DNA of 64,000 nt from Phoronis australis (lineage: Eukaryota; Animalia; Phoronida). Location: the NCBI GenBank assembly GCA_002633005.1, contig NMRA01000088.1:120186-184185 (forward strand). Reading direction: 5' to 3'. The notes beneath the pieces are model-generated. The model did no database searches, was not told the DNA's origin, and saw nothing but the letters and a program-made list of their open reading frames with translations. A program made the translations under genes and the position numbers. Below are positions 36,701 through 61,760 of this stretch, in pieces (within the stretch, counting starts at the first letter, position 1; each line of letters starts with the position of its first letter).

Positions 36701-37343
36701 TCTCTTCCATATAGAGGGTCTGGAGGGTGCTGGACCATGCCAAGAAGCCGCAACGCCCCCACGAGAGAATGTCTGAGGTGGCAAAGTAGCCATTCCCCAG
36801 TAAAATTTTGTTTTCTCATTTTTGCATTTAAACGATGAAATATTGAAAGTTATTTTTATTTATCTTTAAGCAAGCGAGTGGGTGTAAAATTGTCAAAAAT
36901 ATGTACTTTTCTCTTTATGCGTTAAACTGATGTTTTATACAATTTGTGTAGCTGCGTTTTTTCTTGTCTACAGTAACCATGCACCAATGCACAACATATA
37001 TGTTTGACTTGAGCAGGACTAGATTTAAATTAAGTGATAAAAAGTTGGGGCAAAATGACAAAATGTTCGATAAACCTAATTTTCACCTCCCATCGAGTGA
37101 TTGAACCATGCTGCCTTGTCTCGTCAGTTACATGCAAAAGTATGGTGTAATAGCTCAGTTGTCTAATAATCGATTCCAGTTAAGTATCACATTCTTTTTG
37201 TGTTACAAAACAGATGGGGGCAGATACCCCTGTGGCTATCTTTTGTGGAAAACCAGTTTAACGAACACAATAATTTTATGACTAAAGCTGCATGATTTTA
37301 GCTTTACCTTAGCGTTTTCGTTCTGCTCTCTTCTAGTCAAACC

Positions 37344-37485
37344 ATGGCTGATCTAGAGCAACTACGGGTTGCCTTCTGTTCTATACTCCTTCAAGCGCGT
37401 GGCTCTGTCGTCTCCAATTTTGTCGCCTGGCTTGACCTGAAGGTGGCAGAGTACAAAGTGTACGGTCACATGATACTGACCGATG
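37344..37485 (+). CDS. Zinc-finger cassette gene, common coding exon 1
   Basis: Acceptor ctctcttctag| (37336), accATGG start, MADLEQLRVAFCSILLQARGSVVSNFVAWLDLKVAEYKVYGHMILTD, donor ATG|gtaagt, phase 1. Confidence 0.85.
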
Positions 37486-38015
37486 GTAAGTGATCATTGG
37501 TCGTAGCTGTTGTGGAATCTAACCTCGGCAATAATCGTGGTTTCTTTACATGATGCGGATAACACTAGTGCGTATGCACGTCAGCAGTTTATGCCAAACG
37601 AACAACAATTCTGTTTCAGGTGTTACTCTGTTCAGTTCGTTAACAAAACAAAAAAACGACGTATTCACTACTTCCACACTTTCGTGGTGGTGCAAAAATG
37701 ATTGTTGGTCATTTTTGTTTAGGACACAGTACTTCATTTTAGCATCAATTTTAACAACGCAGACATGAAAGCACACGTGTTCCAAACCGGCAGAACCTCA
37801 TTTTCAAGCATAATGGCGAATTCCTGCAAGGGTAGACACTAGTGAATACAATTTATTTGTCCCATCTTTTTCATACTAACAACGAATTTACTCGTGGACT
37901 GGTTTTACATTGTGACGAGCAGTTATTTATAAAATTTCTGTTTCAAATCCTAATTAACGACAGAGATGTGAGTACAAAATTTTCTGTTAAAGCCACATTT
38001 ATCGTCACTTTTCAG

Positions 38016-38871
38016 ACAAAGAATCGGAGATTGGTGCTTGCCAGTACAATGTCAATATTGACCCTAATTCATGGCCAAAGTCCACAGCAGTTAGACTTCT
38101 TAGTCAGGCTTCTGATGTCAACATTGTGCATAATGACTCATCTGGCGAAATTCGTAGGAATACTCAGCCGTCTTCTTCAGCCCGCAGGAAAGGGAGGCCA
38201 TCTTACATTTCAAAAATTTTAACTCTTGGCGGACGACGGACAGCACGACCAAAAAGCGTCGTGACAAGTCTGTTGAAAAACGCCATTTCTCGAAGTGCTA
38301 AAAGTTCTACAGTGCAACCAACTTCGACAGACGTCAGCGGACTTGCGTTGAGGCCTGTGGGGGAATGTGGTAGTTTAAATGAGGAGGATACAGGTACAGG
38401 AGAGTCCAGTGGACCTCCACTGGAAATGGAGAGCACACCGGCTGTCCCTGAACACAGCGAACATGACCAGATATTGAACGATGACGCGGAAACATCGGAC
38501 AAGGATAAGGAAACGGTTCATAAACTGACGACGGTGAAAGCCGAGCCGGGGATGGATGATAGTTCTGAACTAGACGACGTTAGTGTCATAGAGCCCAAAT
38601 CTCCGCCGGAAACGGAAGAGGCAGACAATATGTGGCTCAACGAGTCAATGGGCTCTGTGTTTCCCGATATGCCTGATTTCTCACATGGTGCTTCAGTGAA
38701 TCCCGTTTTGCCATCGACGTCGAGTGGAGGAGAGTTCCAAAGCAGCATGGTGCCACGACCATCGCATAAGCAACTGCTTCCATCACGGCATTCTTACTCG
38801 GGTCTAAGTCATCGTAGCCCGTCCGCATCGTCTTCGTTGGTGCTGTCTAGCGTCTCAAGATCGCTGCTCAC
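38016..38871 (+). CDS. Zinc-finger cassette gene, common coding exon 2 (disordered; AT-hook-like RRKGRP, VKAEP SUMO consensus, acidic and Ser-rich)
   Basis: Acceptor cacttttcag|; 856 nt open, in frame with exon 1 and with ORF 38126-38875; donor CAC|gtgaat, phase 2. Confidence 0.85.
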
Positions 38872-39130
38872 GTGAATATTGATAAACTTGTTATTGTGGA
38901 GTTGTTGACTTTACTCGAGGTCATTATCGTGTTTTTCTGACCCCAAAAGTGTAAAGTCTGAATGTCATGAGAAATTGGATGAAAAAGTTTTTGTCTGAAA
39001 AGCAACCAAGTGACCATGAGTAGATGTCGCAAATTGTTTTCTTTTACTTTTTATTGAGAGCTTGTAGTTTTAGTCATGAAAAAGTCATTTGAGGTCATCA
39101 CGTTTTCTTCATTGACAAGCCATAATGTCT

Positions 39131-39410
39131 CAGTGTTCTCCACAACAAAAAATTCAAACTCAACTTGAATTTCAAAATTCATGTGCATGTGTTCAAACGT
39201 CAATGTCTGTATTGTGGGGAGTTTGAAATAAATACAGTGAACAGGTACCCAAAGTCCAAAATGTCATAATTTGCTTAAGAAATAACTAATCTCCCAATGC
39301 TTCAAACTTGTTGCACCGGTTTTTAAACTCACTACAAATAAGCTAAACTCGTCTGGGCAAAATTCAAACTTAATGCAGTGACGAGTCAAAACAAGTCTTG
39401 GAGAACACTG
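39131..39410. mobile_element. MITE with CAGTGTTCTCC TIRs (hAT-like ends)
   Basis: cagtgttctcca ... tggagaacactg. Confidence 0.55.
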
Positions 39411-40025
39411 TGTCTATATGTTTACCACATTTTTTTCAGTCACAAATGAGTGTGGTGTTGAAAATAGTTCCATGTTCAAAATGCATGCATTAAGGGTCAA
39501 TGCGTATTCCTTGGCAGTTGATTTTCCAAAAATTTAGAAACAAAACAAACCTCAGTTCCACATTTTGTGGCTTCAAAATGTTGTACACATGATGTAGCTT
39601 CTATGTGTTTTTGTGTTCTAATCCTGAAAATCCAAGAAAAATATTTTAAAGCAATTGATTCTGTGGTTACGGAGTGAAAGGTTTTGTTTCCTGGTTTAGC
39701 ACAAATAGTACTGTCCCTGAAAGGTTTTCTGCTAAAATACACCCTAATTGCATCACTAAGGCAGTCTTGCTATTTGAGCCGGGCAGTCTCCCTGTAACTG
39801 CCGAATATGGTAACGGTCACTCGTGGGGGGGTGGGGTCTAAGAACCAGTTTCCTCCATTGAATGATGGGCATTGAAACTGGTTCTTAAATTCCGGATCCA
39901 TGCAAGTGACGAGTGCCCCCAAAAATCTGCCAAATGATTAGTAACACTTGTCATTTTAGCACACTTTGTTCCGTTCTTGCTTCAAACTTATGACAGTTCA
40001 GTAAGGTAGTGGAGCTTTAAATGTA

Positions 40026-40375
40026 CAGTGGAACCCACTTAATGTCGTACTGGGTAATAGAATATCTCTGTTATTGTCGTGAAAAGTCGAAAAACCTAAT
40101 TATTTCCCATTAAACGGTTGTAAAAGATTGTCACGTTCCCAGTTATTTCTACAAAATCAAAAATGTTTCTCATCAGTTTATTAATCTATGTGCCTCACCG
40201 TATTTTGCTGGAGGAGTGAAAGTCAGCCGTCTTTCTGAAACTCCACTTTGCGTGGTCAGCTTGTAAAAGTGGTTACGATCCCTACCAAGTCGTAATCTGC
40301 TTAATGGAATATCCTAATGCTAATTATCATAATTTACGTCAAAACCGAGGACATGACATTAAGCGGGGTCCACTG
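40026..40375. mobile_element. Tc1/mariner (pogo/Tigger-like) MITE
   Basis: ta|cagtggaacccacttaatgtc ... gacattaagcggggtccactg. Confidence 0.65.
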
Positions 40376-41294
40376 TTGTCTGTTTTGAAGATTTATTGAT
40401 CCAGTTTCGGTTAGTATACAAAAAACAGCATTACAGTTTTGTAGGACCGTGTTGACAAGCTGCGTATTTAGCAAAATATCCATACAACGAGAGATTTAAA
40501 CTTAGTAAAAGTGCATGTTTTCCGAAAGTAGGAAACCAGTAGAATTTGGTATTTGACATTTTAACAATCTGCCATTAACTGGGTTACGTGACCGGGTCTC
40601 TTTAGTAAAATTTGGAAAAATGAAGGTACTGTACCTATTGCAAAACATTGCCAAGTTTTATTTGTCTGATATGAATGTTCCTGATGAAATCTCAAAAATT
40701 CTGTTGTTACTTGTTAAATTATCGATTTCATTTTCACCTTTATAAGCAACTTCAGATTTTTATCATGAAAATCATAAAAGTCCTTTTTTGATAGCCCCTC
40801 ATACAACAGTGGAACATATTAAATATAATTACCAACAATTTATTGGAAAGCACTGCATTAAGTATAGTATCGGAAAATTTCATACGAATACATTCGACCT
40901 TTTCTCAGACGTCATTTTCTAGAGCAGTGAGAGCATTGCGTAAGGCCTAAATTGAAATTAATTTTCCCCTTCGTTGGGCAGACTTGTAAAATATTTGTGC
41001 GAGTCTTTGATTACTGGCAAGAAAAATTCACTTGTAAAACGAAACGTTTTTACAACAAAAGTGAGTGTGTCCAGTCGAGAAAAATGGAAACCTGGAACTA
41101 TTTCTCCTACCAACCTGCCCCCTGCCCCTCTCAGAGGTGTGGGAGAAGGGCAAGTGGAAAGGAATAATATTTTAAGGTTGGCCTGATTTAGTGACTTTAA
41201 AAACGTTTTTGCAGCATTATTACATGGAATTTGGTGGTTAATTTCTCTCAGTTTTGTGATCTTCGCTTTGTAATGGCAACGTTTTCTTCCTTAG

Positions 41295-41377
41295 TTCTCA
41301 AGCGACTCGAGGTGTTCCCCGCAATAATGATTCAGTGAACGATTTACTGGAGACGCACACAATACAAACAGAGTCAG
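41295..41377 (+). CDS. Zinc-finger cassette gene, common coding exon 3 (last constant exon)
   Basis: Acceptor gttttcttccttag|, donor CAG|gtgagt; 83 nt converts phase 2 to phase 1 and reads open (TSQATRGVPRNNDSVNDLLETHTIQTES). Confidence 0.85.
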
Positions 41378-43334
41378 GTGAGTGACTGCATTGAGATTCC
41401 CAACCGTCTTGTCGCGTTTACACAATAATTTTGACTTGGGACAAAGTAGCACAGTGCTAGAAGCACATTGTCTGTTTCCATGCAATTTGTCATTGTGGAA
41501 ATTGTTACTGCGGCGTTGATTTGTATATGGTTGAAATGATGCAAGTTTTGCCTGATCATCTTGTTTCATGTCAGCTGCGTGTGTGAACGCAAACTGATGT
41601 CAAAACGGAAGTGATCGTTCCATTTGCACTAACGCAATCCCAACAATTAAAGAGCTTCCTTTGTAGAATCTTACATGGTCTGATAAGACCCTTCCACATC
41701 GGCATTGTTTCTGTAAAGACTGTGTGAACAGGACCAGGTGTGTAAATGTGCTCCATGACCAAAGTTGTTGTGTAAACGCAGTATTTGTCTGCTCTCTGAT
41801 GCGGAGCATCTTTGGAAAATGTACTGAGGTGGAGATATGAGATTCTTTTTATTTTGGGTTTCGTCTAAAACTTTGTGTGTAAGAAAATCTTGCATTGTCC
41901 GGCAACGATGTAATAGTGAAATGCTGTCTATGCCAGGTACTACGTATTTTCAAAACAACTGATATGTCAGAGAATCGAATATGATATGTCAGAGAATGGA
42001 ATAAAACAATGTAAAGTTGAGTATTTTCCTCATAATGTTGGAACCATAATGATTTTGCTGAAAACGAACAACAGCTAGAAATATTTTGCAGTCCACATAA
42101 TGTGAATAGAAATTTTAAAAAATAACGGAATGTTAATTATTATGCAATATCCAGGGCCAGAATGTTGACTTTTCACAAATCATGTTGTATCATTCTAGTA
42201 CAACTTGATAAGTTTACTGGAAGTGTGCCATGCATTTGGTCAGGTTTGCAGTCAAGTTTTGTGTACAAAGCACGGCGTGATGTTTAGCATAACGTCAACT
42301 TGCCAAATGCGACCTGGCAAAATTACTAGGTCACCAAGCAAGAAATGAGGTTGTGAGAATGAGGAAACTGCATATGCAGGATTGCAAAAGTTCTGGAAAA
42401 CTGATTTAGCCAAGACAAATCTTAAAGTTGAGTCAATTTTAAGTTGAAACATAAATTTGTCCTGAATCCGTTCCAAGAAAATGGTCTTAGTTTGTCTTAA
42501 GTTTTTGACTGAAGTTTTTTCTTAAAATTTGACGTAACTCACCCGATGTTGAAGTTTCAAAGTTTGGAGGTTGAAACAAATCTAATTTTATCTTAGACTT
42601 AAGCCAAAAATGAACTTAAAATTGGTTTCTTCTTATGGGCCCCTGGCCTACACAAACGGCTCTTGGCAGCAGCGGAGAATGAGAATGAGATACATAATTT
42701 GATGCACCGATGAACTAGACAAATGTCAAGAGCTGCAGGGTGGCGTTTTTTAGCGCAATGTAAAATTAGGAATACACCGTGACCATGGTAACAGCCAATT
42801 ATTGGCTCCAGTAATCCACGCACACACGCCTCCTACCTAAGGGAGAAGCAGCCAAACAGCACTTGTTCTTGGTGCGTAAGTCGTCATTGAGAACCTACTG
42901 TTTTTGCCGAACAATTCCGACCCGTTTCTTTACTTCCTGTAGTATTTTGAGCATGTGCTCAGATGCGTGCATGGCAGTGTGGGATTTTACCGGGTCATCA
43001 AACAAAATCTGAGGTCGCACTGGCGAGTAATTATTTTTAATGAAATTTAAAGGAAATTGTTTTTCACCCAAATTAAAGAGGCCTGGAACGTGATTAAAAG
43101 ACTAAAGTGCAATATTAAAATTGGTTCTCTGCCATTGAAACAGAATTCAACCTGCTCACCAGGTATTTTTAGGGTTTGCTCGTAAAGATTTTTAATTTAT
43201 GTTGATATCAAAGCATTTTCTTTTAGTTCCAAATTAAAAAAAAAATGGTCTGTCATCTGCTCCCCACTCCGTCAATTTTTCTCCCTCAAGGCAAAGCACA
43301 TCTCCTTATTTGGCATGGCAAGACATAGACGTAG

Positions 43335-43401
43335 CACATTTCCTTATATGGAAATGGCACATTTCCTTATATGGAAATGGCACATTTCCTTATATGGAAA
43401 T
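43335..43401 (+). repeat. ~23-bp tandem repeat x3
   Basis: cacatttccttatatggaaatgg repeated. Confidence 0.8.
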
Positions 43402-45360
43402 GTGATGTTTGACTTCAAGCGACTTCAAGCAACTGGCTGTGAGCACATGCACATATTTATCATAAATAGGAGGGAGATTAGAGACTCTGTGATAGCCACA
43501 GAGTTTTTCCTTGGCGTGTATTTCAAACATCGTGAATTTTGTGACTTCTTTCTAGAAATTTCCTCATTTCAGAGGGCAATGTGAATTTACTCTGTAATAG
43601 ACGTTTTTCGGGAATAGTTTAAAAGATATTTTTGACGAGCTTTTTTGCATTCCATGGCTCTTTAATTGTGATCTCCACCTCAGTTCAAAGGATGATATTC
43701 CATTGGTGCGCATGAGGGGGGGGTATGAGGGGGGGGGGTATTTCCTNTCAGATTGTGTTCCTCTGTGTTCAAGTCGTGATCATTGTGCTTCTCAGTTAAA
43801 CTTTTATAGTTAATCTTATTTCAAAGACATCTGCTGGAGACGTTGATTTATTGTGACACATGTTGAAGGTATGATCATAATCGATTGCCTACAGCTTTTG
43901 CTAAAAAATTCTGATACAAACACTATCCTTGGATATGCAGGTTGATATGTCATTTTACCTTCTGTGAAGATATAGGTTGCACGCCCGTTTATTTATCTGG
44001 TCAAGCAGTCACCTGTTCACATAGTCATAATTACTCAAAGGCTAAAGGCCTTAAGTAAAGTCTAGTATTGAATTTGTAGGTCATATTGATGGTCTCGGTA
44101 GGTTTGTGGACTGGTTCACTGGATTGCTGTCATTGTTAGCTGAGGGTCTAGGGTTTGAACCTTAGAACACTAGAAATTTTGAAATTGAAATTTCGAAAAA
44201 AAAAAATTGAAATGGAAATATCTTCGGTCTTGATTTGTGTTTTGCCAGGGAAGGTTCTGTTGCATAAAGGTTACAGTATGAATAGCAACACTGATGTCTG
44301 ATTGTCACCCTTCTTTTTGCTTTTGTGGACAATACATTTTCCGTGGTGCAACTTATCTGAAGGATAAATTTTGAACTTATGCAACCCAGTCCAGGTCATT
44401 GAATATTGACAAACCACGGTAAAATCTTACCTTACAGTGCTCGGCGCATCGCTAAACGCCAAGTCGCATTTGGCAACCAGGTTGCCAAACGAAATCTGTG
44501 CTTGCCAGAAGTGAAAATCTCTGGCGTCTAAATCAATTCCCAGGTTTCTTATCCCCGATGTGGCGTAAAGTTCGTCGACCAAAAAAATGTCGAACGGTTG
44601 TAGCGCCACACAATCCGATTTCTCCGTCAGTGAATGAAGATGCAACGCAGATGACTGCATGGACTGGTAGTACAAATTTTGCCGATCTTGCCCTATTTTT
44701 ACCGAACATTTCAGACTTTCCGACTTTTGTCTTTTTACTTCCTGTTGTAATTTAAGCGTGGTGGCAAATGTGTGATTTCGTGAAATCAACAGATTAATTG
44801 TGATTAAAAGGTAATAAACTTAGGAAAGGTATTAGTAATTAAAAGCTTGGAAGTCAACGCGAAGCCTGAAAAGAATTTAGAGGGAATTATTGTCTGACTT
44901 TGGTTCATTCAGTGGCGACTTTGTGGTTACTTTATCCCAGGGCGCCAAACACAATCTCGTATTCACAGCGCTGCCTTATTAAGACACATGTTAAACGTTA
45001 ATTTTTGATTTTTTTCGTATGAGATTATTAACACCAAATAAATGCTTTTATCATTACTTAAATTATGTACCCTAACTACCATCAGACATTGTTTTGAGGA
45101 ATTTTGGGCATTAACAGTAATGTAAGGTGTCTTTCAAAAATGAAAAGGGTTAGTTTTTGCTATTATTTTTGTCCAAATGTGGTGAAGTTTACCTCATCCT
45201 TGGATATGAAGAAGTTGTGAATGGTCTCAAGTTTTGACAATATGACAATAGCTATTGTCTGATATACTGACATTATGTAGTATCCCTTGTTGTTATGGCG
45301 ATCAAGTAGTTGGTGGATAGTGTTTGGATTTTTCATGTGGACTTAATACTATTCAATTTC

Positions 45361-45630
45361 ATAATGTTTCACTTCAAGTCCCGAACTTTGCAGATTTCAG
45401 AAGATTAGATACGTTAAAACTGCTAATGCAGTATTTCCCTAGGCAATTTGCCAAATTTTATCAAGTCGGCTTTTGATCTTGGAAACCGTCGCATTTATGG
45501 TACATCTGAGTTGTGTGGTTAAAGTGACTAGCAAGTCTAACTGAGCTGGGTACTTATTTTTCTTACGAATGCTATACCTATCTATTGTACTTGCCACTGT
45601 TATAAATAAATACATACAAATACAAATACA
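45361..45630 (+). mobile_element. 5'-truncated 3' end of the same LINE family as 18244-21772
   Basis: Closely matches ~21483-21772, including the 3' UTR and (AAATAC)n tail. Confidence 0.9.
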
Positions 45631-47806
45631 GTGAGCATTCCCTGTTTTTTACAGATTCACAATCATCATTTGTGTTGTACTTTAGTATCATCAAAATATT
45701 CACAGACACCCAAATGTCTCGTACTTTCCGTGAGCGAAAAAATTGCGCTTCGTCCTTGTCAACTCCACCCGACTTGCACACCAGAATTAAAAATTGGATC
45801 AGATGAAAAACCCCTTATTGCTCTCACGCCACTTAAGAGGTTTACTTGGGAGATTGCCGGTTGCTCGTTATTCACTGTGATTTAGGGGTGTTCATTTTTC
45901 TTCTTTAATAAGAGGATTTCCTCTTTTTAGGTTTGGATTTCCTCTTATTTGATTTCCAGTTTCCTATTTTTTGTTTCTTTTTTACCATTATTTTGACTTT
46001 ATTCAAGCACAAGGGTTTATTTCAGTCAATCACAAAAATATTTCTATCACACAAACCTATTTATTTGTGGAACAATACATCACCTGGAAAATTTTCCTCT
46101 TTTTTGTCATTGGTCATTCCAAGCCCTGTTCATACTACAGATGTGTCTATGAAGCAGTCGCTAGCAGAAATCACGAAAAGAGACTCAGAAACAGAAAACA
46201 TATTTTATGCGTTCCATATTGATGGAAAATGTAACTTTTTCCTGGCGTTATTCCTTTGCTGTAATACTAATTGTTGAAAACCCGCATGCACCCATACACG
46301 TTTGCACACTCTGTTGCTAGACCTTCCACTCCCTCAGTGTAGCTGGTGCAAGATGGAACTCGTTGTGGAAATCCTAGAAAAGCCAAAAAATGACAAGAAT
46401 AGTCTTGGCGTATGTAGTATAAGTTTTAAGAAATCATATAGTTGTATTGCGAGTTTGTGCATTCAATTGGGCTTGGCAATAATTATTAGCGAAATATCTT
46501 AATCTGCCTTTTGTAAGTAGATTGGATGATGAAAAAATGATGATAATTTCGCATAAATGGTATTCGAGGTATAACAGTGAGGTCCAGCATTTGATATTAC
46601 CATCATTGAACAATGCTTTTCCATTGGCTAAACTTTCATAAAATAGCTATAGCTTAGTAAACTTGCTAGCAACAATAGTATCATAGCATTATTTGGGGCC
46701 AATATTCTCTGTGGTAGCAAACTGTACATTTGTGAAAAGTAATGCTATGGATTATTTGAGCTTGTGATGTTAACTGCGTAGACTGAACAAATCTGCCTGC
46801 TAGTTGATTTTCTATCGCTAATGTTATGAAAATTAGACTGGGCAAATAGAACGAATCACTACTTAAGTTTCATGCATATGCTGGTACATGTGAATCTCTT
46901 GTAGAATGGGTTATATTTAAGTATTGAAACAGTACTGTTATCTCAGTCAGAATTTATCTCTATTGCTTACTTTCCCTGCATGGTTATGTGTGGTCTATTA
47001 GTATTCCTCGTGTCTGTTGCATGACTTAAGAAAGAAGAAATTTGCGCTCCTAATTCGCCATTGCTGACAAAGGTTTAGCCAAGTAATTACGAGTTCATCA
47101 CCATCTAGAAATAATTCATAGAAATTATCTCAGTAACCGGCTGTTGTCTGGATATTCCCAGAGATGTTGTGCTTTAGCTCGTGTGAGAATTCAATATTAG
47201 AAATACTTGGGTGGAGTGCACAACCAAATTTCTGACTTAAGTCTTGAGTCCCTTTTCTTGAAACAGATCGCTGTACTAAGTCATCATGAATTTCTCACTT
47301 CAGTTTCTGACTGTCCTTTGTGTATTGGATGTCCCAGTTTTGTGTTTTTTTATTGATTTTCAGCCCCCTTTGTCATCCCACATTTACACTCATTTGTACT
47401 GTTATACCTTGTCTGTTTCCATATTTGCCTACTGCCGTAGAGTGATGTTAAACCTCTTGTGGCGTGTTAAAATGGGTCTAATGTTACTTGGTACACAAAA
47501 TTCCCTTAAGATTGGGTCATCTTCTTCATGCAAACCTTTCCACGTCTGTTGCGGTCGATTTCTCTCTTCTGACTATTTCTATTTGTACTGGCCTGTCGGG
47601 CCCTCTGCGAGTTGTTCTTAGGTCAAGGTTCGTGCATGATAGTGGTGTGAGTGGTGGTCTTTCCTTTCTGTCGGGCTCTTGTTTATTCCATTGGGCAATT
47701 GTGTTAGTTTATGTTGGTGTGGGTCTTAAATGTTTCGCCTCTTTAAAAGTTTACACGGTGAGGTTGACGACCACCACTCATAGGCGTGTCTCTTTGGCTT
47801 TTGCAG

Positions 47807-47982
47807 GCTTCACGTGCACAATCTGTGGTAGTAAGATCCAGCGGAAGAACCACATTATCCGCCATCTTAAGTCACATCTGGGTGAAATGTGGGCGTGTCG
47901 CGTCTGCTTCAAGAAGTTCACGCGAAAGGACGTGATGTACCGCCATCTTAGGTCGCACCATCCCGAGGCGAATGTGATGTAG
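47807..47982 (+). CDS. Alternative terminal exon A: tandem C2H2 zinc-finger pair
   Basis: Acceptor tttggcttttgcag|, phase 1; GFTCTICGSKIQRKNHIIRHLKSHLGEMWACRVCFKKFTRKDVMYRHLRSHHPEANVM*; AATAAA at 48951. Confidence 0.9.
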
Positions 47983-48539
47983 TGGCACGGCCCGCATTCC
48001 TGGGGATCGCTCGCGACCTTCAAAATTGTCAGAACATTGAATGTTGCAGGATATCTTGACATATCGCGTGATGTTATGGTTCAACAGAGAAGTTTCACAC
48101 AACTGGAAATGACTGGTTTGAGAAGGAACTCAACTGATACTGGCTTGGTTATTCAGATGGTCATTTTTTCTCTATTGCGTAATTTAAAACAATTTAAAAT
48201 CTGTTCAATTTCTTGGAATCTTCTCGTTTATGACTGTTCAGTCCTTCTTAAGCTGATTTGCCTGTGAATGTGAGTCGTAGTTGTTGGTCCAGAGTTCCCA
48301 TGGTCTCTTCCTTTCTAGTGTCACTGTACTGTGGTCAGTTTTAAATGTTGGATGTTTTGTTCAATTCATACATTAAAGTCTTGCACTGTACACTGTTAGT
48401 GTACACTATCACTGAACTGAACATGGATATAGGATACCATGGAGTACCAAGTGGATTGCATTCTCGAGCTAATACTGTAAACATTCTTCCGTTTGGGACA
48501 GTCTCCAAAATTTGGGACTCCGAAATTCAAGTTGAAATT

Positions 48540-48845
48540 GAACGCTCATGTTTCTGAAAATTTAGACACAAGCGTTTTTGACGTTCATGGTATTTCTTAG
48601 ATATCAGACACTGCATTTCATGTCAACCGAGTGTGAAAGTCGTCACAAATAGCCGCAGAGGTGATGTATCATACGTCCCCATAGTGTGTAGCATTGAGGT
48701 GAATGATCAAGTGCTGTTGATCGTAATCCTTGAATTTGGGTCGATCAACATTGCCTATCTCTAAAAAAATTTGGTACAAGCTCAGACTTTAGCAGAATGT
48801 AAAACTATTTGCTTTGTTTTCACTTGAGAATTTTTACCGTAACGG
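48540..48845 (+). repeat. Old dispersed repeat or local duplication, second copy at ~50730-51030
   Basis: Shared colinear blocks cgtccc..atagtgtgta..gaggtgaatgatc, tgcctat.tctaaaa and gagaattttta.cgtaac. Confidence 0.6.
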
Positions 48846-51175
48846 CCTTTTGGCAAAAAAATCATCTTACTCGTGGTGATGTGTAGAAATGGTCTTGCCA
48901 TGTACTCTTCATCATTGAACTCTGTTGAGTTAGGACAGTTAGTGGCAAAAAATAAAAACTGAATTTACATCTTATTTATAATGTAATTTACGTTGCCTTG
49001 TTATACCTTTTGAATTTTGGCAATTTTCCAAATTTAGTGTTTCTGTGTCAGTTTTTGCTATTATCATTGTATAGTAGGGGCTGTCAATGAAAGTTTCTGA
49101 TGTTGTAGTTAAGATCAAATCAGTGCACTGCACTCTCTGCTGTGCAGGTGATCGCCAACAATTTGAGCTAAAATAAGGACAAAAATAATCAATAGTAATT
49201 ATTGCTAATGGCAATTAAGGTGACGGGAGACCTTATACAAAATGTCTAAACATCACATATCAGAAGTTGTTGATCAGATCAAGTGAAACTTTCACATGCT
49301 GTACTGAATGCACAGTTCTCCAAAACATTGATAGGAATTGTTTTTAAAGTGGCTATGTCTATTTCAGTGTAAGGAACTGCCTTTGAGTCTATCACATTTT
49401 TATATAGACCACTTCTAATTACGAAATTAGTCTCATATTGTCCCGTGCAAATTACTGACTGTTCGTTAATGCTTGCGACCAAGCTCTATAAGTTGTCGTG
49501 TCAGTTAACGCACCAAGCATGACCTCGAGTAATAACGACTTGTCCTTTCTTTCAAAGCCAAGAAACTTCTTGATCTCTGAGCAATGAACTAGCTAGTTTC
49601 ACTGACAGAACATGGGTCTGTAGCCACTTGCTGTACTCGTCCGCCTTACCGCCCAGGGCACTTAAATTGGGAATCTAAAAAACAGAGGGTGGGTAGTAAG
49701 CCGAGAATGGGTGCTTAAAAATGAAAAATTGAAAATTTCGGGTGTGTGCGCCGCACACGAAACTGAGCATAGGCAGTAACCCGTACGAGTACGGTATTTT
49801 TTTCCACTTTGGCATGAAGGGCTATGAAAAATTGGATCTTACAGGATTTTAATAAAAAAGAACAAAAGCTGCCTCAAGTGAAAAATGAAGGGATAATTTA
49901 GGAAACTAACAGCGCTTTTGAGATTTCCTCTTGATCATTTTTATCAAGCAGAATATTATTGATAACGTTATTGTTCAATACACAGGCTTGTTGATAAGGT
50001 CCAACAAAACCTTAACTGCTACTGTTACAGTACATGTTGATGTAATCGTTCAATTTCATGAACACAAAGTGATACTGAGTATCATAGCCGAATTGTGTTA
50101 AACAAACTCTCCTGGATTTTTTTTGTAACTGAAGTTTGGTGGTAACCAAATCCATTTGTGCGCAGTGCATTGGCTTGACATTTGTGGAAGGGGTCTTTAT
50201 AAACAAGCGCGCGTTTTAAACTACGCTCTTGAAGTGCATTTGGTTATGCTGAATCTTTAAGTGAAAAAACAAATAGTTTTCCGGATACTCATTAGATTTT
50301 TGCAGAATTTAGTGATGTAGTTTAGTGTTGAGAAATCAGTTTCCAAATTTCATGTGATCGTTTGTACTTGTCCAAGTGTTGTAAGCAAAGATGTCACAGT
50401 TCAAAAGCATTAATTGAGCTGTGGAATTGACTGTGTTAAATTAACCTGGTACTTGTTAATTAGTTCACGATGTTTTTCAAAAGCTCCCTGTTATGGAGTC
50501 AACAACAAAACTAGTCAAGTACATTTTACCTGAGCTGTATGTTGGCACATGCTGTCTTTTGAACATGAACTTTTTTATTTGTGCCGCTATTGTCTGGTTT
50601 TTAATCTTACTATGGCCAAAAACCGATTTAATTTTGACTCGTACAGTAAAAATTCTCCAGATTGGGATAGTTTCTAAAGTTTGTACATTTTAAATTCACG
50701 CCGAAATTGAATTTTCTCAATTCTGAAGATTGAGATTTGAGCGATTTTGGTATTCATCATATTTCTGAAATTTCAGATGATGCGTTTTGTTGTTAACAGG
50801 GAATGAAAGCAGTCTTGGCAATGCATAAAATTGTTGAAAATTGCGGCCGATGCGACAATTTCAAGCGTCCCGATAGTGTGTAAATCGAGGTGAATGATCC
50901 TTTGTTTTTGATCTTGATTAGTGTAGTTGGCATCACCAATACTGCCTATTTCTAAAATTTAGTACAATCTGCAACCTTGAGCATAATAACTAATTTTTCA
51001 CTGTCTCTAACTGGAGAATTTTTAGCGTAACACTGCTATTTATTACCATCGTTGGATTGGGAGAGTTTTGGATTTTCCTGTATAAGAAAAGTTGTTGTGA
51101 AGGACTAAATTTTAGGTTTTGTAAAAAACTTGAGTCATTTGTTATGTCAATCTTTTTAAGTGCATAAAATGGCCA

Positions 51176-51440
51176 GGGGCTTGTTTCATGAAAATGGCTT
51201 CAGACTTAAGGCAAAAGTTTGGTCTTACGCTCCCTCTTAACAATTTCTGAAAACCTTTAGCCAAGTAATTACGAGTGCATCACAGTCTAGAAATGATGGG
51301 TAGAAATATCTCGTCAACTAGCAGTAATGTGTATTTTCGTAGAGACTGCGCTTTTACTCTAGTGAGGTACATTATTTTTGAGAAATAGTTCTGTGGAAAG
51401 TGAGACCAAGTCTTAAGTCATGTTTCGTGAAATATACCCC
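51176..51440. mobile_element. MITE; related copy at ~47005-47290
   Basis: ggggcttgtttcatgaaa..gacttaag / cttaagtc..tttcgtgaaatatacccc; internal tttagccaagtaattacgagt shared with ~47074. Confidence 0.6.
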
Positions 51441-54000
51441 AGGCCTCTTGTCTACATTACGATGTCAACTAATGTATCTCAACAGAATCATGGTCTGAAA
51501 TCGAACACTACCATATATGCCCATGCACCTATATCCAAAATTTTTCCTGTTTTGAAGCAAATTGTTTACTTTAGTGTTTTGTGTATAGGTGCATGTCCCC
51601 AAGTTTCTCTAATTGGTATAGGTGCACAACTTGCTGTGGCTGCAACCGTACGTATTGTCCTCGACGAAAGTGCGTAATCTTGCCTGTGTGAGACAATTTG
51701 TCGCGACTTGGCTTGACAGCGCATTCCCTAGATTATAACTCAGATAAGACGTTCTGTTAGACTCGGTTCACTTTTGAAGTTGTATGTAACAAGCAGGAAT
51801 AAGTGACAAGAGTCCAGTTCAGTTACTAACTGTTGCAGAATTGGTTATTATGTATTTATATTTGTAAAAGTAGTATATTTCTGTGACATTGAAACACAAA
51901 TAAAATGCCCAAAGTTTAACTGAATTATACGACTTTGTCTAAGACAACACTTCTAATCGACAATTGTTGCGAGCTTTTTCATGAAAGATACTTTGATTTT
52001 CTAATGCGAAAATCTTTTGCTTTTATTTTCGCAAAAATCAAAGAGGCCAGTGTCTTAGGCTTCACCAGCTGTTGAACCAGGAGACCGTGTAGTTATTAAG
52101 TTCAGGCATGACGTCAAACAATGTACTCTGGTTATAGTATACTCCTAAAAACTGCGTAGTTTACCTGTTGTCATTATCAAGTTATCAGCGTACAAAGTTG
52201 AGTTAGCCATTTGGGAAAGTGCGTTTATTATTGTGCAGCCGACTGGCGTAGATCATTTGAAAATTCTTGAGATTTAGAGAGGGATTAAATCAGTCAGAGA
52301 CTACTGGAAATATAATAATAACCTTTTGAAAAATCAACCGTAACTGAATATTAAGCTACTCCTGTAATGTGGGAGAGGAATGCTAACTCACCTGTGTACA
52401 CAAGCAATCTTGGCATTTCTCTAAATGTTCAACTCATCTCCCATGGCAGTCTTCTTTCTCGCTGCTTATTCTTTTTCCAAAATGCTTCAGCTCTTCGCCT
52501 CTTTTTCTCAGATGCACTCGGGAGATTAGTCCTTGGATATTTTCTGCAGTGGCTTTGTTCAGCACCACACACCACCCGCGTCGGCCATTTTTTCATGGCG
52601 CCCACCAACGAAAAGCCAATCAGGTTGCCACCTTGATTTCACTTAAATTTGACTGAAAGCCTTTGTTAGGAATTCGCGATTTGTCATAGAATCACAAAAA
52701 ACACAGATTACACTCTGACAGCTCTTGTCAAAGCTTACATTCGAAAAGTCAGTCATACCCAAAATTGTTGTTTGGTTGTATAACCGATTGTGTCCTTTTA
52801 AATGAACCAGACCTGAATAGTGTAAGGGTATTTAAGAGACATTTATTACCTTCTCAGTAAAACCAGTGAAAGTGACAATAATGTTTAAAATACAGTTGCC
52901 AGTTAAAACAATGTTCATGCAGTACATCTAGGTGTATTATGGGAGCTTGTATATTATTGTTAAGATTCTTGACTGCCTTCCAGGAGTCAAGCTATGAAAA
53001 TGGTCAGTAGGTGGTCTAGAATACACCAGGTCTTTCCAAAAATTGGAAAGTGTCATCTTCTGTTTGACAGAATTTCATGAAAATCCGTCTCAGAACTCTG
53101 AAGATAAAGAGAAAAAATGGAAAGAAACTCAAATTTCCACTAGGGGACACAATGGTTGTTGGATCTACCTGAAAGTCATCTTCATCCATTGTCAAGTTCA
53201 TACGAAATGAAATACACTTGCCAAATTTTACAAAGATCCTACTAGGGGTTTTAAGAGTTACAACTGCAGAACTGATGCAAAAAAGACATCTGAAAACTGC
53301 ATTGTTTTCCCAGCATTACGGAGCTGCCTTGCTCCTGCTGGGGGTTGACTAAGGGTCACCCTCTGGTGGCCCTGAACCATGGGTCAAGCAACTTAAATCT
53401 TACCCCTTCAAGTCTATTCAAAGAAGTTTTTCTGGTTTGCACCCAGGTTTATCGCATCTCTGACACCTCGCTCAAATCAAGAACTTTCTCTAACCAGTGC
53501 CCTAATGTTTGCTGTCTTAACATAGTGTCCCATGTCTCTAGGTGGCGCATCACTGTCTGTTTGGCTGCTCTTATCACGGAGTAATAGTTCTATCAGTGTT
53601 GAAGTCCTAGAAAAAATTGTGGATGGAGTCCTGGGAATAAAGTTGAATGAAGACGTTAACTCTATTGGATAGTAGGTCATAACACAATTTTCTGTGCAAC
53701 TGTAGAAATGAAACCTTATTTGAATTTTACTTACAAATTTAAACTTAATATGGAAAAATGGAATTTTGCCAAGGGACCACTTCCTGTGGGTAAAATTTAA
53801 AGTAAGGGGATATTTTTCGCCACGACTCAGTTTGAAACTTATAGCAACTGATCTTGCTCCTGGGTTGTTTTTCACTGAAAAATGGTGTTCAGAGGCACTC
53901 TGAAGATTTTAATATTCAAATTTGACTTTGGACCTCACTCTAACAAAATGAAACTTTGACTGCCAAAACTGACCACATATTTTTCTCTCTGTCGTTGTAG

Positions 54001-54179
54001 GGTTGGTCTGTCGCATTTGTGAGAGTAAAGTAAAACGACGTACCCACATGAGAGCGCATTTACTAGAACAGCATCTTGGTATAGCACACATGTGCCCCGT
54101 CTGCAAGCACACGTTCTCGCGGCGACGCGCGCTGAAATATCACATGGATAAAGTGCATGCCTGTTCACTTCCTATCTAA
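54001..54179 (+). CDS. Alternative terminal exon B: tandem C2H2 zinc-finger pair
   Basis: Branch-like ctgac, pyrimidine tract, tgtag|, phase 1; GLVCRICESKVKRRTHMRAHLLEQHLGIAHMCPVCKHTFSRRRALKYHMDKVHACSLPI*; absent from the ORF track. Confidence 0.9.
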
Positions 54180-57100
54180 GTCGAGGAGAAGTACATTAAA
54201 TCTCAAACCATTTCCACGATTGTAGACCCATTAATTTAAAATTTGTAGCGATAAAATAGGCTTTTCTGTTTCAAAATAACACTACAGAATTGCAGGAAAT
54301 TATTATTTTGTCTGAAATGGAGCCATTGCCATGGTAACATAATGAAAATTCTTCACTCGAGGACGCAATATGGTGGTCGTGAAATTTTATTTTTATATTT
54401 TTACATAGGAAACTGTAATTCTGTGGAATTGAATTTTATTTAAAATTGCCTAGCTTGCCCTTTTTCATTGTTTACGGTCTGCTATCATTGTTTTAAGTGC
54501 CTTTTTTCAAAATTTTGTCTGATGGTCGCTATGGAGGAGAACTTGAAAACGAATTGTCACTTGTTTGCCGAACTGTGCCCTAAGTGGGTGTTGTTTTAAA
54601 ACTTCTTGTGAGCATAGTGCATGGCTTGGATTATTTTATTATTGCAAAAGCCAAAGGTTGAAGCATGGGACTTAATTTACAATGTTTACATCTCCAAATT
54701 CAACTTTCCTTTCACAAAGGTAGAAAAACACTTTGTGTGATTGTCTAGGTTTTTGAAAGATGATGGCGTTAAACGTTTCTCGGATGACATCTATGAGAAA
54801 AAGCGCAACATCTCGGCCCATTCAGATTGTTGATTATGTGGTGTCAGCATTGTAAGTCACTGTGTAACAGTAAACTTCTATTAGGGTTAGAATGACAACT
54901 TTCAAAATTATGTTGTTGAATGATAGTGATCAACACTGCAGCAGTGTATAACTGGTGCAAGTGCCCTGCTGCTGCACAGCATTGTGGGTAAATATCTGTG
55001 ATGCAAGTGCCCTGCTGATGCACGGCATTGTGGGTAAATAGGGCACTGTGGTATTTTGGGATGTGACTTGATGACATTGCCATAAATGATTTCGTTATTC
55101 TTAGGATTATTAATTTGTAAAAACAAGAATCTGAGGAACGCTAGATCTGACCAAGTTTGTTGATGTTTTATGAGGTGATATTGTTCAGAAGTGTGAAAGG
55201 CCTGACAATTATAATAAATGGAGAGTGATTAAATTCTCACCATTTCTTTCTATGCAAAACGATTAGTGGCTAAATGTTGAAAACTTGTTGTTGGGTTGCC
55301 ACAAATGTTTCCACCCATCTTCTGACATACTGTGTTATTTTGATGTTTTATTGTTTGGTGTTGACCTCGCGTATTAAAAGGATACTAAACCCTGTTTTGG
55401 AGATTTCAACCAGTCATCGACATGTCCCCAGCTAATGCACTATTGGTGTCAATCTTGAGGGATAAAAACACATACTTACTGTGTCGCAAAATCAAAATAG
55501 ATCATAGTTCTTGGTCAGTGATTTTTGCCCGCTGTTGTGTAATTGGTCTAAAGCGTAGGTGGCGCTTGCTTGTTTAAGTAGATGTTGTAGAGAGTTTTCA
55601 AAGTTTGATCCAAATGTTTAGGGCTGAGGAGGGTTACAAAGCATTATTTTGTTTTAGAGATCTGGATGGCAAGGTCTCTGTTATGATTAATAGACCAAAA
55701 CCGGTTTCGGTATTCTTTTAAATCAAGCCAAGTTTTAAATTTGAAGTTGTCAGCACTTTCATGCATGTATTAATTTATGTTGCAAAAGCATTTGATAAGT
55801 CTGCAGTATTGTTCATAAAGTTATGTTGAGTAATTCAATAATTACATTTTTGGTGTGTCTGAATTACATTCATGTTCCAGAATTCGGCATTTGTCAATGC
55901 TTTCTCTCCTAAGCCAAATTCATGGAAAGGATTACTGCACGAGATTGATTGTTTTTCACACTATGTAAGCTGTGAATTCACCTATGAATGCGAAACTTCA
56001 TTTGTGTGTTTAAGATTGTGTTGGACCCTTTAAAAATGGCCAAATTTGGCTGACTTCGGAATGTGATATCTTAGAAAGGGCTGATCGGATTCATACCAAA
56101 CTTTCAAATGCTATGCTTCATTCACTGATCTCAAAAAGGCTGTTTGGAATAGTTTTTAACATCTTCTACTTTTGCACAAAAGGGTATTAAAAATAAAACT
56201 TTTATAATTTTCAGGAAAATTCTTTAAAAGTTGCATAAAATGAAGAAGAAAAGGATATTTTAGGAAACTGTAGCAGCCTTTTTGTCCTACAGCAATTGTG
56301 TGATGACACAGATTAACAATGGCAAGTGTTCACTGTGGTTTATGGGGCTGTCAGTCAATAATGTTATCCATTTGAATGCATTTGAGTAAACTTTCATCAT
56401 TTAAATTTAGAAAGTTAAATATAAGTGGCCGGGCATTAAGGTTATTCCAGATTTCATTGCTGGTGTATTTAGCTAATTGTCTCAAAAACACTGTTGCTAC
56501 TTTTCACTTGTCTTTATTGTATATAGTTCAAGGCCATAGGCCCATGGCACAACGAAAAATGCGAAAGTGCATTAAAGTTGCTATTTTCTGAATTGTCATT
56601 TTGTTTTTGTTTATACACATTTTGCTTTTTTCCTACAATCCTATTTTTGTAGCATCCCACATGGTTATCCATTCTTAGCATCATTTTGGTCAGTCACAAT
56701 ATTTGAACTTTTGTTTGAATCTGATCAGCCATTGTGGCGTTCTGAGATGTGTTGACCTCAAATTTGGGTCCCACATTACCACATGCCAAACCCAACATGA
56801 ATATTTGGAAATTCTTTTGTAGGAATCAACTCCAAGAATTGTTATGTTTGAACCTTGTAACCTTACCACCAGGTGCATTTTCAGGACAGTGCTTTTTCTT
56901 ATTAAGCAGTCTTCAATGCAATATGAACAGTTAGGTATTACATTTTTTATCTTGGGAATGTCTCAAAAAAGGCATTCTGTATTTATTTTGTGCTTTCTTA
57001 TTTAGGAGAAACTTCGAAATTTTGAGGGTGTGGGTGACGGGTATGCAGAGCCCTAGAAAAATGTCCAAATTTGATCAAATTGGGAACATCATGTCTCAGA

Positions 57101-58124: not shown

Positions 58125-59165
58125 TCGTCTTATTAACTGAGCTTTCAGGGTTCAGCGTGCTTTGTCAGAATTGTGGGTGACACTCAAGGTAAAGACTTAG
58201 TCCAACAGCCTTCTTGCCTTTTGCACATGTACTACTCAAGTTATTTATGCCCCCTGTGGCCAGTTGCATGAAACAGTCCCAAACAAGGACTCAACTAATC
58301 CCTTTATCTGCTGGGTGTTTGTGGACCTGTGAAGACGGCGATTGTCCTTTCTTGTACTGTTTTAGTTTCATTACTATGTCAACTTTTGGCTTTAGTACAA
58401 ATCGCGTGTAAGCTCTACGTTGATTTCTCAATATTATCAAAAATAAATAAGAATCTTTCCATGCAACGCCCCTAATTTAGGACTAAGTCCCTACTTATTT
58501 CGATTGAACTCGGGAGTCAGTTTTTAGTTATAGTAACGATGAAACAATAGAAAAAGATTACATCTGTGAGTAAAGAAAGACGCAGTAGATTTGGGGCACT
58601 TAGTTGAGTCCCTATTTGGGACTGTTTCATGCAACCGGGTACAGGCNTCATCTTATTAACTGAGCTTTCAGGGTTCAGCGTGCTTTGTCAGAATTGTGGG
58701 TGACACTCAAGGTAAAGACTTAGTCCAACAGCCTTCTTGCCTTTTGCACATGTACTCAAGTTATTTATGCCCCCTGTGCCAGTTGTATGAAACAGTCCCA
58801 AACAAGGACTCAACTAATCCCTTTATCTGCTGGGTGTTCGTGGACCTGTGAAGATGGCGATTGTCCTTTCTTGTACTGTTTTAGTTTCATTACTATGTCA
58901 ACTTTTGGCTTTAGTACAAATCGCGTGTAAGCTCTACGTTGATTTCTCAATATTATCAAAAATAAATAAGAATCTTTCCATGCAACGCCCCTAATTTAGG
59001 ACTAAGTCCCTACTTATTTCGATTGAACTCGGGAGTCAGTTTTTAGTTATAGTAACGATGAAACAATAGAAAAAGATTACATCTGTGAGTAAAGAAAGAC
59101 GCAGTAGATTTAGGGAACTTAGTTGAGTCCCTATTTGGGACTGTTTCATGCAACCGGGTACAGGC
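58125..59165 (+). repeat. ~520-bp near-identical tandem duplication containing a MITE; probably an assembly overlap
   Basis: 58125-58646 and 58648-59165 are separated by a single N; each holds TIRs gttgcatgaaacagtcccaaa / tttgggactgtttcatgcaac (one substitution in the second copy). Confidence 0.85.
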
Positions 59166-59449
59166 AACCAGTACCTCCATATAGTGACCTGTGACCGAAC
59201 CACTTTATTTCCTTGTACTGGCCAGCTCCAGTCTCTTCGGCTTCTAGCCTAGTTCTTCCACAGCCCAGAAATCCCTTCTGTTCGGATTTAAGTACGTGGT
59301 GATTCCAATTATATATATTTAAAGCTGCCAATAATCCGCCTAAAGTCACAAAAATACTTTTGATTAGCACCGTGTACGGTTCAGTGATTGAATCTCAAAT
59401 TGCTCCTGAGCCAAAATAGATGCTTTTTCTTCGCACCAGGCCCTACAAG

Positions 59450-59760
59450 TTGACTTGTCACGGCGTGACATTTTATTCGCCGAGCATGATCTCAAGCAAT
59501 AACGAACTGTCAATTGACCTCTCGCAAGCTCCGCCCCCTTGTGAAGTCACCGACAATGTGTTGTTTGTCGGGTAAAATGGCGGCTTGGAAACGCAGACGA
59601 AGATTTGTCGAGAATGTTGCGTTCTGATTGGCCAGTGAAGCCGTCAGTCAAAATAAAAAAATCAAAAGTAAGGTGTTTTGAGACCGAAGGCGGGTTCATT
59701 GGGGCTGCATCGCCACGTCTATTTTCCAGATAGTCTGGCCACTTATGGACCAATTGTATA
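59450..59760 (+). promoter_or_regulatory. Internal promoter-like CpG patch within the cassette array
   Basis: GC box ctccgcccc (~59529), YY1 consensus aaaatggcggc (59574-59584), ctgattgg box, donor-like AAA|gtaagg at 59667/59668. Confidence 0.45.
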
Positions 59761-61593
59761 ACGTTGAGTTTCCGCGTGCATATTACGAGTACAGTGGCAA
59801 ATAAATTGTTGAAATTTAAGCGTGTTTTTCAATCCAGTTTTAGTAGTTGTTGTTGGATTTATCGTGCCTTTTCCATCCATCGGTTGAAGACGATTCTACG
59901 TTTTCTCAGTTAAATTTCTCAAATAAGAAGAAAAGCTCCCGAGGGTCTTGGGAGCAGTTATTCGCGGGAACTGCACATTGACTCCACGGCGTTTCACTTC
60001 TTGTATCTACTTGTGCTCTACATGACCTGAAGGCCACTGAAACCGGCTGTAATCTTTATTACCTTGGCGTGAATGTGGGCTAATCCTGTTTCTCATTTCG
60101 TTGGCTTTGATGCGTTATGGTGTTTTCCAATTGATGTTTCACGCAAAGTTGTCGAGACTACGTACTTATTCATATCGCCCACTAACGCAGAAAGTAGTTC
60201 CCGCAGTTGGGTCCAGTACTCGCTGGTTCCCTGCGTGCCACTAGGTGGTCGGTAGCCAGCACGCAGGTATCACTTAATTTTGCTCGGGAATTTTTTTTAC
60301 ACCAGCGTTTCTGATTGGCTGATCAAATTCTCAACAGGCAGCGCTTTACGCAAACAAACTGGCATGACTGATGGACTCAAGTGTAATGTGGTCTGTTGTA
60401 TAGACAAATCGGTGCTTAAAATTTATGTACAGGAAATCTGAAACCCATAATTTGTGGTTGCTCCTTTTCGGAGTGCATCTTTTTACTGTCGATGACTTTC
60501 GTTTACGATACTGTCCTGCATTCACACAGTATGAATAACACCGCACCGGTTAAAACGGCCAGGTATGTGTTTATTGTACATGTATGTGCTTCAAACACGC
60601 GGCTATTAAACATTACTGCAGAAACGAAATAGTTGCTGTTGCGCCACTTTCATGACAAGGCTAAAAATCGTTCATAGTTCGCCATTTTTCACGTTGTTGT
60701 AAAGCTAAGCAATGACTGCCGAGGTTACACCAACCAATGCTAAAACGCGTGGTACTGCGTGATACCTGCGTGCTGGCTAGGCACGTAGGGAACCAGCGAG
60801 GGACCAGTCACTAGGTGGCGAGACCGTCTTGTCCACGACTCGGTCGGTTAGAACTACAAAACACCGTGTGTAATTCGACGACATTCTCCGGCAACTTATT
60901 GACCAGGACACATTACCCCTGCCGGAAATTGCCCTCGTTGCTTCGAGCAAGAGATTCAAGTTATGGTTCGCTTCGGCGCTCTACGTCGCGGACCTATACG
61001 TAACAGATCGGAGGCATTCCCGACGGTCTCACCGGAAAATCTTGTGGCAGAGTGGAGTGTTTTTTATGTTAAAAAGACATAATCACTGAAAAGAACTTCA
61101 AGTGTAAGAAAAAACTACTTTAGCACCAATAACTTATGTCACTTAAAGCGGAAAGAGCCCGCGTTCCATCGAAAAAAAAACACTAAATTTTGATTTAGAC
61201 CACTTGTTCCAATGAAATTGATCTCAACTTATTCCTAACAAAGGTGAGAAATTATTATTTTTGGCCTTGCTAAGAGAACTGACATTTCCTCATTTCCCGA
61301 GACCATACTCGGCGCCCAAAATAGCACGCCGCTACAGGCCAAGATGTAGAGCCTGCTTTTAGCAACAGCGAACTGCCAGTTCACTCGAAGCCGGCCCTGA
61401 CACCACCTCCACTGATTAAGGAACAACTCGTGGTTTGAATCAAAAAGTTGGTTATTTTGACGGAAGGCAGTTTCGTAGCCGCTTTAACTGCATGCAACCG
61501 TTTTATATGTGTTGTTTCATTTTCGGCATTTTTCCTTTTGGAAACTTATACAAGGAGGCGCAACAGTGATTTTATGTCTTTTTAATATTGTAG

Positions 61594-61760
61594 GATTCGT
61601 GTGTAAAGTATGCAACCAAACTGTGAAACGACGACAACATATGCGCCGTCATATGCTTCAGCACATGGGAGTATCGTACGAGTGCCCACTCTGCTTTAAG
61701 CATCTTCCGCGCAAAGACAGCGTCAAAGAGCACTTAAGGAGATGTCACAACGTCCATTGA
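61594..61760 (+). CDS. Alternative terminal exon C: tandem C2H2 zinc-finger pair
   Basis: Acceptor tctttttaatattgtag|, phase 1; GFVCKVCNQTVKRRQHMRRHMLQHMGVSYECPLCFKHLPRKDSVKEHLRRCHNVH*. Confidence 0.9.

Follow-up and report, generated by a model that had tools for sequence, protein, structure and literature searches.

Swappable DNA-binding ends on a constant protein body are known from insect BTB genes, whose individual isoforms have distinct neural roles according to the accessible part of one source (10.1101/132027). The accessible text of that source and of a second one (10.1101/132027; PMC11426971) gives lola 20 isoforms, 17 of which carry their own zinc-finger end; the second (PMC11426971), in its available passages, counts at least 30 isoforms for mod(mdg4), describes the isoforms of both genes as arising by trans-splicing and reports the TTK-type BTB motif as not found in Mollusca. 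In the 3′ variable region of PGRP-LC, tandem alternative cassettes are coupled to separate polyadenylation, as far as the accessible part of PMC6191721 describes it. Here, we analyze a locus of related design in a 64,000-nucleotide stretch of Phoronis australis DNA (the window; assembly GCA_002633005.1, contig NMRA01000088.1, positions 120,186 to 184,185, forward strand), for which a first-pass annotation from sequence alone had proposed a gene that diversifies its isoforms through alternative zinc-finger last exons. Our analysis supports, with a probability of roughly 0.84, a single gene in which three constant exons are spliced to the finger exon F1 and, likely, to F2 or F3 instead, giving one ending per transcript and three transcription factors of 415-419 residues. 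The locus is likely a lola-like alternative-last-exon gene built on an undescribed front domain.

Exon structure and RNA evidence

The locus comprises three constant exons, three finger exons (F1 to F3) with 3′ untranslated regions (UTRs), and one decayed copy, with the following coordinates in the window:

37337..37485, + strand: constant exon 1, with its ATG at 37344 and a probable acceptor at 37337; ends in phase 1, codes for a conserved 47-residue two-helix domain
38016..38871, + strand: constant exon 2; 285-codon linker rich in Ser, Pro and acidic residues, likely disordered; donor CAC/GTGAAT weak, yet used in RNA reads
41295..41377, + strand: constant exon 3; ends at the common phase-1 donor CAG/GTGAGT
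47807..47982, + strand: coding part of finger exon F1; two C2H2 fingers and a stop (Pfam zf-C2H2); RNA joint 41377>47807
47983..51920, + strand: 3′ UTR of F1, about 3.9 kb; end inferred from AATAAA at 51899 and sense-strand read depth
54001..54179, + strand: coding part of finger exon F2; two C2H2 fingers and a stop (Pfam); joint to exon 3 inferred
54180..55250, + strand: probable 3′ UTR of F2; putative end set by AATAAA at 55213 or ATTAAA at 55228 and by sense-strand depth
61594..61760, + strand: coding part of finger exon F3; two C2H2 fingers and a stop (Pfam, acceptor score); predicted ending
about 62050..62332, + strand: decayed finger-exon copy; pyrimidine tract with no AG after it, cysteines lost, in-frame stops

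From the ATG onward, the constant exons contribute 142 nt (37344-37485), 856 nt and 83 nt, which add up to 1081 nt, or 360 codons plus a G. Joined by script to the acceptors at 47807, 54001 and 61594, this part stays open to the stops at 47982, 54179 and 61760 and yields proteins of 418, 419 and 415 residues, respectively. Both the predicted sizes of about 415-419 residues and the predicted exons with their phase-1 CAG/GTGAGT end were thereby borne out, the latter also by RNA joints through exon 3. The acceptor at 37337, 7 nt 5′ of the ATG, reaches the 99.3 percentile of a home-made acceptor score, and because such a strong acceptor stands just before the ATG, a further untranslated exon is likely to lie upstream. 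Almost no RNA reads were seen upstream of this acceptor (interval 37335-37343). The exon 2 linker contains 19% Ser, six of its nine listed read variants are synonymous, and it gave no Pfam family and no homologue among 1287 candidates of 156-499 residues. No second copy of the constant exons (tblastn) or of the exon 1 domain (domain profile search) was found in the 64-kb window, in agreement with the earlier statement that no such copy lies between the finger exons.

A six-frame scan of the window identified seven C2H2 motifs, comprising the six fingers of F1 to F3 and one at 62109 in the decayed copy; a weak finger-like match at 58741, which sits inside a duplicated repeat, was rejected. The zf-C2H2 scores of F1, F2 and F3 are 27.4, 27.9 and 32.4 bits against a cut-off of 25.2, and their acceptors rank at the 98.2, 99.8 and 99.6 percentiles of the home-made score among 1207 AGs in 41.4-64 kb. 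All three acceptors share the phase, the spacing to the first cysteine and a pyrimidine tract followed by AG. The exon architecture read from the letters was confirmed at the stated coordinates. The three endings are 37-42% identical as proteins, with all zinc ligands and frames intact, and agree at 31-38% of third codon positions against 58-71% of second positions. Because third positions have diverged while second positions, ligands and frames are retained, F1 to F3 appear to be old duplicates maintained under selection. In the decayed copy, positions 62263-62332 match the F3 stretch 61669-61738 at 52 of 70 bases; with its stops and lost cysteines, it is best read as a later duplicate that failed behind F3.

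Splicing was examined in three raw stranded RNA runs (X1 to X3) carrying the same species label, of which 18-19% each was read, and joints supported by at least 3 reads were listed over 37200-54300. An initial mapping was swamped by repeats and gave no splice joint among the 15 of 41 rows listed, and only its depth table was used. Of the nine rows in the joint table, four represent GT-AG splice joints, an allele included, and the other five are short events within repeats. Exon 1 is joined to exon 2 (37485>38016) by 11 reads in X3, and exon 2 to exon 3 (38871>41295) by 1+1+4 reads plus three with one differing letter at the joint. The predicted joint from exon 3 to F1 (41377>47807) was found, with seven reads in X3 and none in X1 and X2. 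The equally predicted joint to F2 (41377>54001) was not listed in the three partly read runs, nor was any direct joint from exon 1, which also ends in phase 1, to a finger exon. The F3 acceptor is 20.2 kb from the donor at 41377.

The depth table separates F1 from F2. In all three runs, sense depth continues through the F1 UTR to bin 51475-52045 and is zero in 52046-52616, and a contig piece (X4) ends at 51906, near the AATAAA at 51899. Over the 1.7 kb between the F1 UTR and F2 (bins 52046-53758) sense depth is at most 0.04, and because of this near-silent gap the transcription of F2 is not F1 UTR. Bin 54010-54676 then shows sense depths of 0.84, 1.48 and 3.3 in X1, X2 and X3, so that F2 is covered in every run, and bin 54677-55343 behind it shows 1.36, 2.01 and 5.1. 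The preceding bin, which holds just the first 9 bases of F2, has depths of 0, 0.03 and 0.02, equivalent to about 0, 2 and 1 reads halting at the acceptor, in X2 and X3 with the 2-nt AG overlap expected from the end of exon 3. F2 thus has a sharp 5′ edge at its own acceptor, equivalent to about three split reads, an edge that does not identify the partner exon. In X2, the bin of exon 3 has about sevenfold depth with no joints to F1, which fits other partners for exon 3 and intron retention alike. As a separate observation, the exon 1 bin of X2 also has about sevenfold depth, with no joint from exon 1 to exon 2 listed and position 38067 uncovered (37337-37485, 38016-38100); possible causes are a low read number, allelic divergence or a different partner of exon 1.

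These data bear on two other explanations. If F1 were the only ending of this gene, F2 and F3 would be last exons of other transcripts or transcribed orphan duplicates. The missing joint to 54001 suits this explanation, as does the decayed copy behind F3, which documents that failed duplicates occur at the locus. However, neither a further front domain nor a convincing protein-coding open reading frame (ORF) was found between the finger exons, F2 has its 5′ edge at its own acceptor, and frames and ligands have stayed intact despite nearly saturated third positions. Considering also the last-exon arrays annotated in relatives, we regard this explanation as highly improbable. Alternatively, all endings might be used, with the distal ones attached by trans-splicing of separate pre-mRNAs. 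Such a route is reported for lola and mod(mdg4) isoforms in the accessible part of PMC11426971, and the F1 UTR closes at a clear poly(A) signal that is followed by a read-free gap. Nevertheless, the exons all stand in order on one strand within less than 25 kb and no sense reads upstream of F2 mark a separate start, while the low intronic depth fits either model; trans-splicing therefore seems improbable, and we retain splicing within one transcript as the preferred reading.

The front domain and its relatives

The domain encoded by exon 1 spans 47 residues, and its AlphaFold2 model consists of two helices (residues 4-17 and 20-40) with a predicted local distance difference test score (pLDDT) of 85.9 and a predicted template modeling score (pTM) of 0.51. 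Pfam gave no family for exon 1, for exons 1-3 together or for any of 11 aligned homologues, and the two-helix model is too small for a BTB fold, consistent with the earlier view that the gene has no recognizable BTB domain. A sequence search of the PDB returned no matches, the best Foldseek E value was 6.0, the wide VIA search reached at best Z 4.9 with generic helical hairpins only, and the ESM Atlas gave no usable match for exon 1 or for the Octopus domain. The modeled fold is accordingly left unassigned by the PDB, Foldseek and VIA searches and would not thereby be a proven new fold. The front domain is undescribed and distinct from BTB; a literature search, whose coverage lacks most subscription journals, found no paper on it or on such last-exon arrays in molluscs. 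Because the hairpin is small and carries many conserved apolar residues, the model suggests that it is likely to pack against a partner.

A word search found no homologues of exon 1, and the full HMMER search gave 33 matches, about a third of them multi-stretch matches that did not enter the alignments. With a profile of 11 sequences, 92 proteins were retrieved, 76 of them named and all 76 molluscan, including abalone, mussels, scallops, ark shell, Solemya, unionids, venerids, Octopus and Argonauta. Against a profile built without its own row, exon 1 of the window scores 67 bits and the next-best ORF 6.5. Exon 1 carries the domain motif F..W[LV]D.K.[AS]E[YF]K..G.M, and F26, W29, D31, K33, E36, K38, G41 and M43 stay the same in all 42 aligned rows, with 36-60% identity to relatives over most of the 47 residues. 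In 155 of 166 local profile matches, the domain begins no later than residue 12, and a phase-1 exon end of the form G/GTAAG occurs in all three genomic homologue loci, as in exon 1. In a tree of 47 columns and 34 rows, the window domain groups with Haliotis (98/94), and both fall into a triple-finger group that has weak support (87/77); the long branch of the window domain makes this placement uncertain. Judged by these relatives alone, the source organism would likely be a mollusc.

Proteins with this domain appear to share a layout in which the domain and a long linker precede a C-terminal module of C2H2 fingers, of HTH-psq type or labeled BEN in UniRef. In BEN domains, the last helix reads DNA. 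The BEN label comes from UniRef names, and Pfam gave no support for it in P0022, P0033, P0036, P0037, P0088, P0106 and P0143. The window protein follows the same plan, with a long low-complexity linker and a DNA-binding-type module at the C terminus. What it has in common with this unnamed mollusc family is the exon 1 domain, the phase-1 exon end, the long linker and the DNA-binding-type C-terminal module. Members of the family include Haliotis XP_067686078, Octopus LOC115213480, Mytilus LOC127730005, Pecten LOC117322409 and Mizuhopecten LOC110460779, and several are annotated with alternative endings in database gene models made by automatic annotation.

The two scallop genes have 16 clustered isoforms each, with all 15 listed ends distinct, and these isoforms diverge only past a common prefix of 485 (Pecten) or 492 (Mizuhopecten) residues. 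For fourteen of the 15 Pecten ends, reciprocal best matching identifies a Mizuhopecten counterpart with 77-100% identity over 22 residues, and the mean identity among the Pecten ends themselves is 34%. The ends of Mytilus LOC127730005 form two nested sets, and three of six Mytilus ends are reciprocally matched. In three Octopus species, two triple-finger endings each follow a common prefix of 372-374 residues. Members of the subfamily closest to the window gene carry three fingers, with one or two endings, and the window endings are whole finger pairs, whereas the bivalve arrays swap only the last 25-80 residues of a helical module. In the scallop and mussel proteins P0084, P0143-P0170 and P0087-P0108, just the final basic helix of this module is exchanged, via at least 15 conserved last exons; such helix swapping may be a finer specificity switch than the swapping of whole fingers. 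The proposal of an isoform-diversification locus is partly supported, by constant exons spliced to F1 in reads and by annotated last-exon arrays in relatives; the joint 41377>54001, by which it would extend to F2, was not listed.

Choice of ending and predicted DNA recognition

We propose that the F2 and F3 endings are joined from the same donor at 41377 as F1, each ending having a stop of its own and likely a separate poly(A) site. Most likely, two outcomes would compete: either a proximal acceptor is used and the RNA is cleaved at the poly(A) site belonging to it, or read-through leads to the next ending. This competition model is preferred because no docking/selector pairing was found. The best donor-acceptor RNA duplexes, searched up to 0.6-2 kb from the donor and 300-400 nt from each acceptor, had energies of -22.0, -18.7 and -23.4 kcal/mol, values that 12, 11 and 3 of 12 shuffles also attained. 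The best pairing site common to all three acceptors (-19.5 kcal/mol) was matched by about 8 of 14 random intron triplets, and among 169 inverted repeats, the 25 longest include none that connects the donor region with an acceptor. None of four approaches gave a pairing above controls, and weak pairings are possible. The helical hairpin may serve as an oligomerization or cofactor-binding module in place of the BTB domain of lola, and the array probably grew by ancient tandem duplication of a finger exon, with the failed copy behind F3 as a later addition.

The three products would share a common front and are predicted to read partly different G-rich sites. Sites were predicted with the C2H2 recognition code. 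The residues at positions -1, +2, +3 and +6 are R-N-H-R and R-D-V-R in F1, R-T-H-A and R-R-A-Y in F2, and R-Q-H-R and R-D-S-E in F3. By this code, all finger pairs are predicted to favor G-rich triplets, with the first triplet common to F1 and F3, a second finger that differs, and F2 the most divergent. The expectation of different DNA specificities is therefore plausible in part, for the second fingers and the first finger of F2, and is tempered by the contact residues that overlap.

This overlap also raises the possibility that the endings are alternative and bind similar sites, with the array chiefly swapping 3′ UTRs and tuning where and when the protein is made. The arginine at -1 in all six fingers and the histidine at +3 in all three first fingers would be in keeping with it, together with UTR lengths of about 3.9 kb for F1 and about 1.1 kb for F2. 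However, the second fingers differ at +3/+6 (V/R, A/Y and S/E), the first finger of F2 has alanine at +6, and the scallop ends, 34% alike within a species, are 77-100% conserved between species in 14 matched pairs. We consider this possibility unlikely and favor endings that differ in part in the sites they read.

Several observations weigh against a gene with three alternative endings of distinct specificity. One of the three variable joints was seen, in one of the three runs (seven reads), and the joint to 54001 was not listed. Intron retention could account for the excess exon 3 depth in X2, since 390 bases of that bin are intronic. The isoforms of the relatives are database gene models, the nearest relatives, from three Haliotis species, were found as single-ending proteins, and the large bivalve arrays belong to another subfamily that swaps a short terminal helix rather than fingers. 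Finally, beyond the shared arginine at -1 and histidine at +3, the first fingers of F1 and F3 are identical at -1/+3/+6 (R/H/R), and specificities may differ less than the three endings suggest.

On a wider view, and tentatively, at somewhat less than even odds, the locus may represent an independent molluscan family of transcription factors that combines a helical oligomerization domain with interchangeable endings (pairs of fingers in the window gene, triple fingers in Octopus and single terminal helices in mussels and scallops), and whose isoforms and paralogues hetero-oligomerize into a combinatorial specificity code, a counterpart of lola, fruitless and broad. In databases, the members of this testable family of mollusc regulators go only by "uncharacterized" or "dentin sialophosphoprotein-like", and these animals would have more DNA specificities than their gene counts suggest.

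Neighboring sequence and comparison with known systems

Repeats and element remnants surround the gene. A THAP domain fragment at 22583-22858 on the minus strand (Pfam PF05485, E 1.9e-5), likely a transposon remnant, lies beside a GC-rich tandem repeat at 23.1-24.0 kb. Broken ORFs at 18300-21450 on the plus strand gave no Pfam family at E 0.01 for any of five pieces; by eye, their motifs resemble a long interspersed nuclear element (LINE) endonuclease and reverse transcriptase. Positions 25175-26333 and 27750-28617 hold a degenerate tandem array that repeats about every 173 nt, and an assembly gap flanked by a 238-nt inverted repeat. A 522-nt tandem duplication at 58125-59165, 98% identical and with a single N between the copies, contains an element with 46-nt inverted ends that resembles a miniature inverted-repeat transposable element (MITE); the duplication possibly stems from assembly. 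Old direct repeats lie in and around the F1 3′ UTR (48473-48843/50642-51031, 66%; 47042-47215/51225-51397, 71%), and short intronic repeat pieces at 45900-46130, 39131-39161 and 55340-55660 draw hundreds of partial RNA reads from elsewhere.

Compared with PGRP-LC, the locus shares the arrangement of tandem alternative 3′ cassettes. PGRP-LC has competing RNA pairings and its product is a receptor, whereas in the window gene no docking/selector pairing above controls was found in the stretches searched around donor and acceptors, and its product would be a transcription factor. The likeness to mod(mdg4) lies in one constant part with many alternative C-terminal modules of DNA-binding type. In contrast to the BTB domain, FLYWCH modules and trans-splicing of mod(mdg4), the window gene has an unrelated front domain and classical C2H2 pairs on one strand. 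The closest resemblance in design is to lola, broad, fruitless and tramtrack, in which constant N-terminal exons encoding a small conserved domain plus a long linker precede alternative C2H2 last exons. As in the Tramtrack group, constant exons are spliced to a C2H2 last exon (exon 1 to exon 2, exon 2 to exon 3, exon 3 to F1); for the use of one donor with at least two finger exons, the joint from exon 3 to F1 is listed, that to F2 is not, and F2 is sense-transcribed. The window gene has no N-terminal TTK-type BTB domain and carries the 47-residue two-helix hairpin instead, and it is not a member of the Tramtrack group; three intact endings stand in this window against the 20 isoforms of lola. 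An equal layout on an unrelated, uncatalogued domain in gastropods, bivalves and cephalopods suggests convergent evolution with the insect BTB genes.

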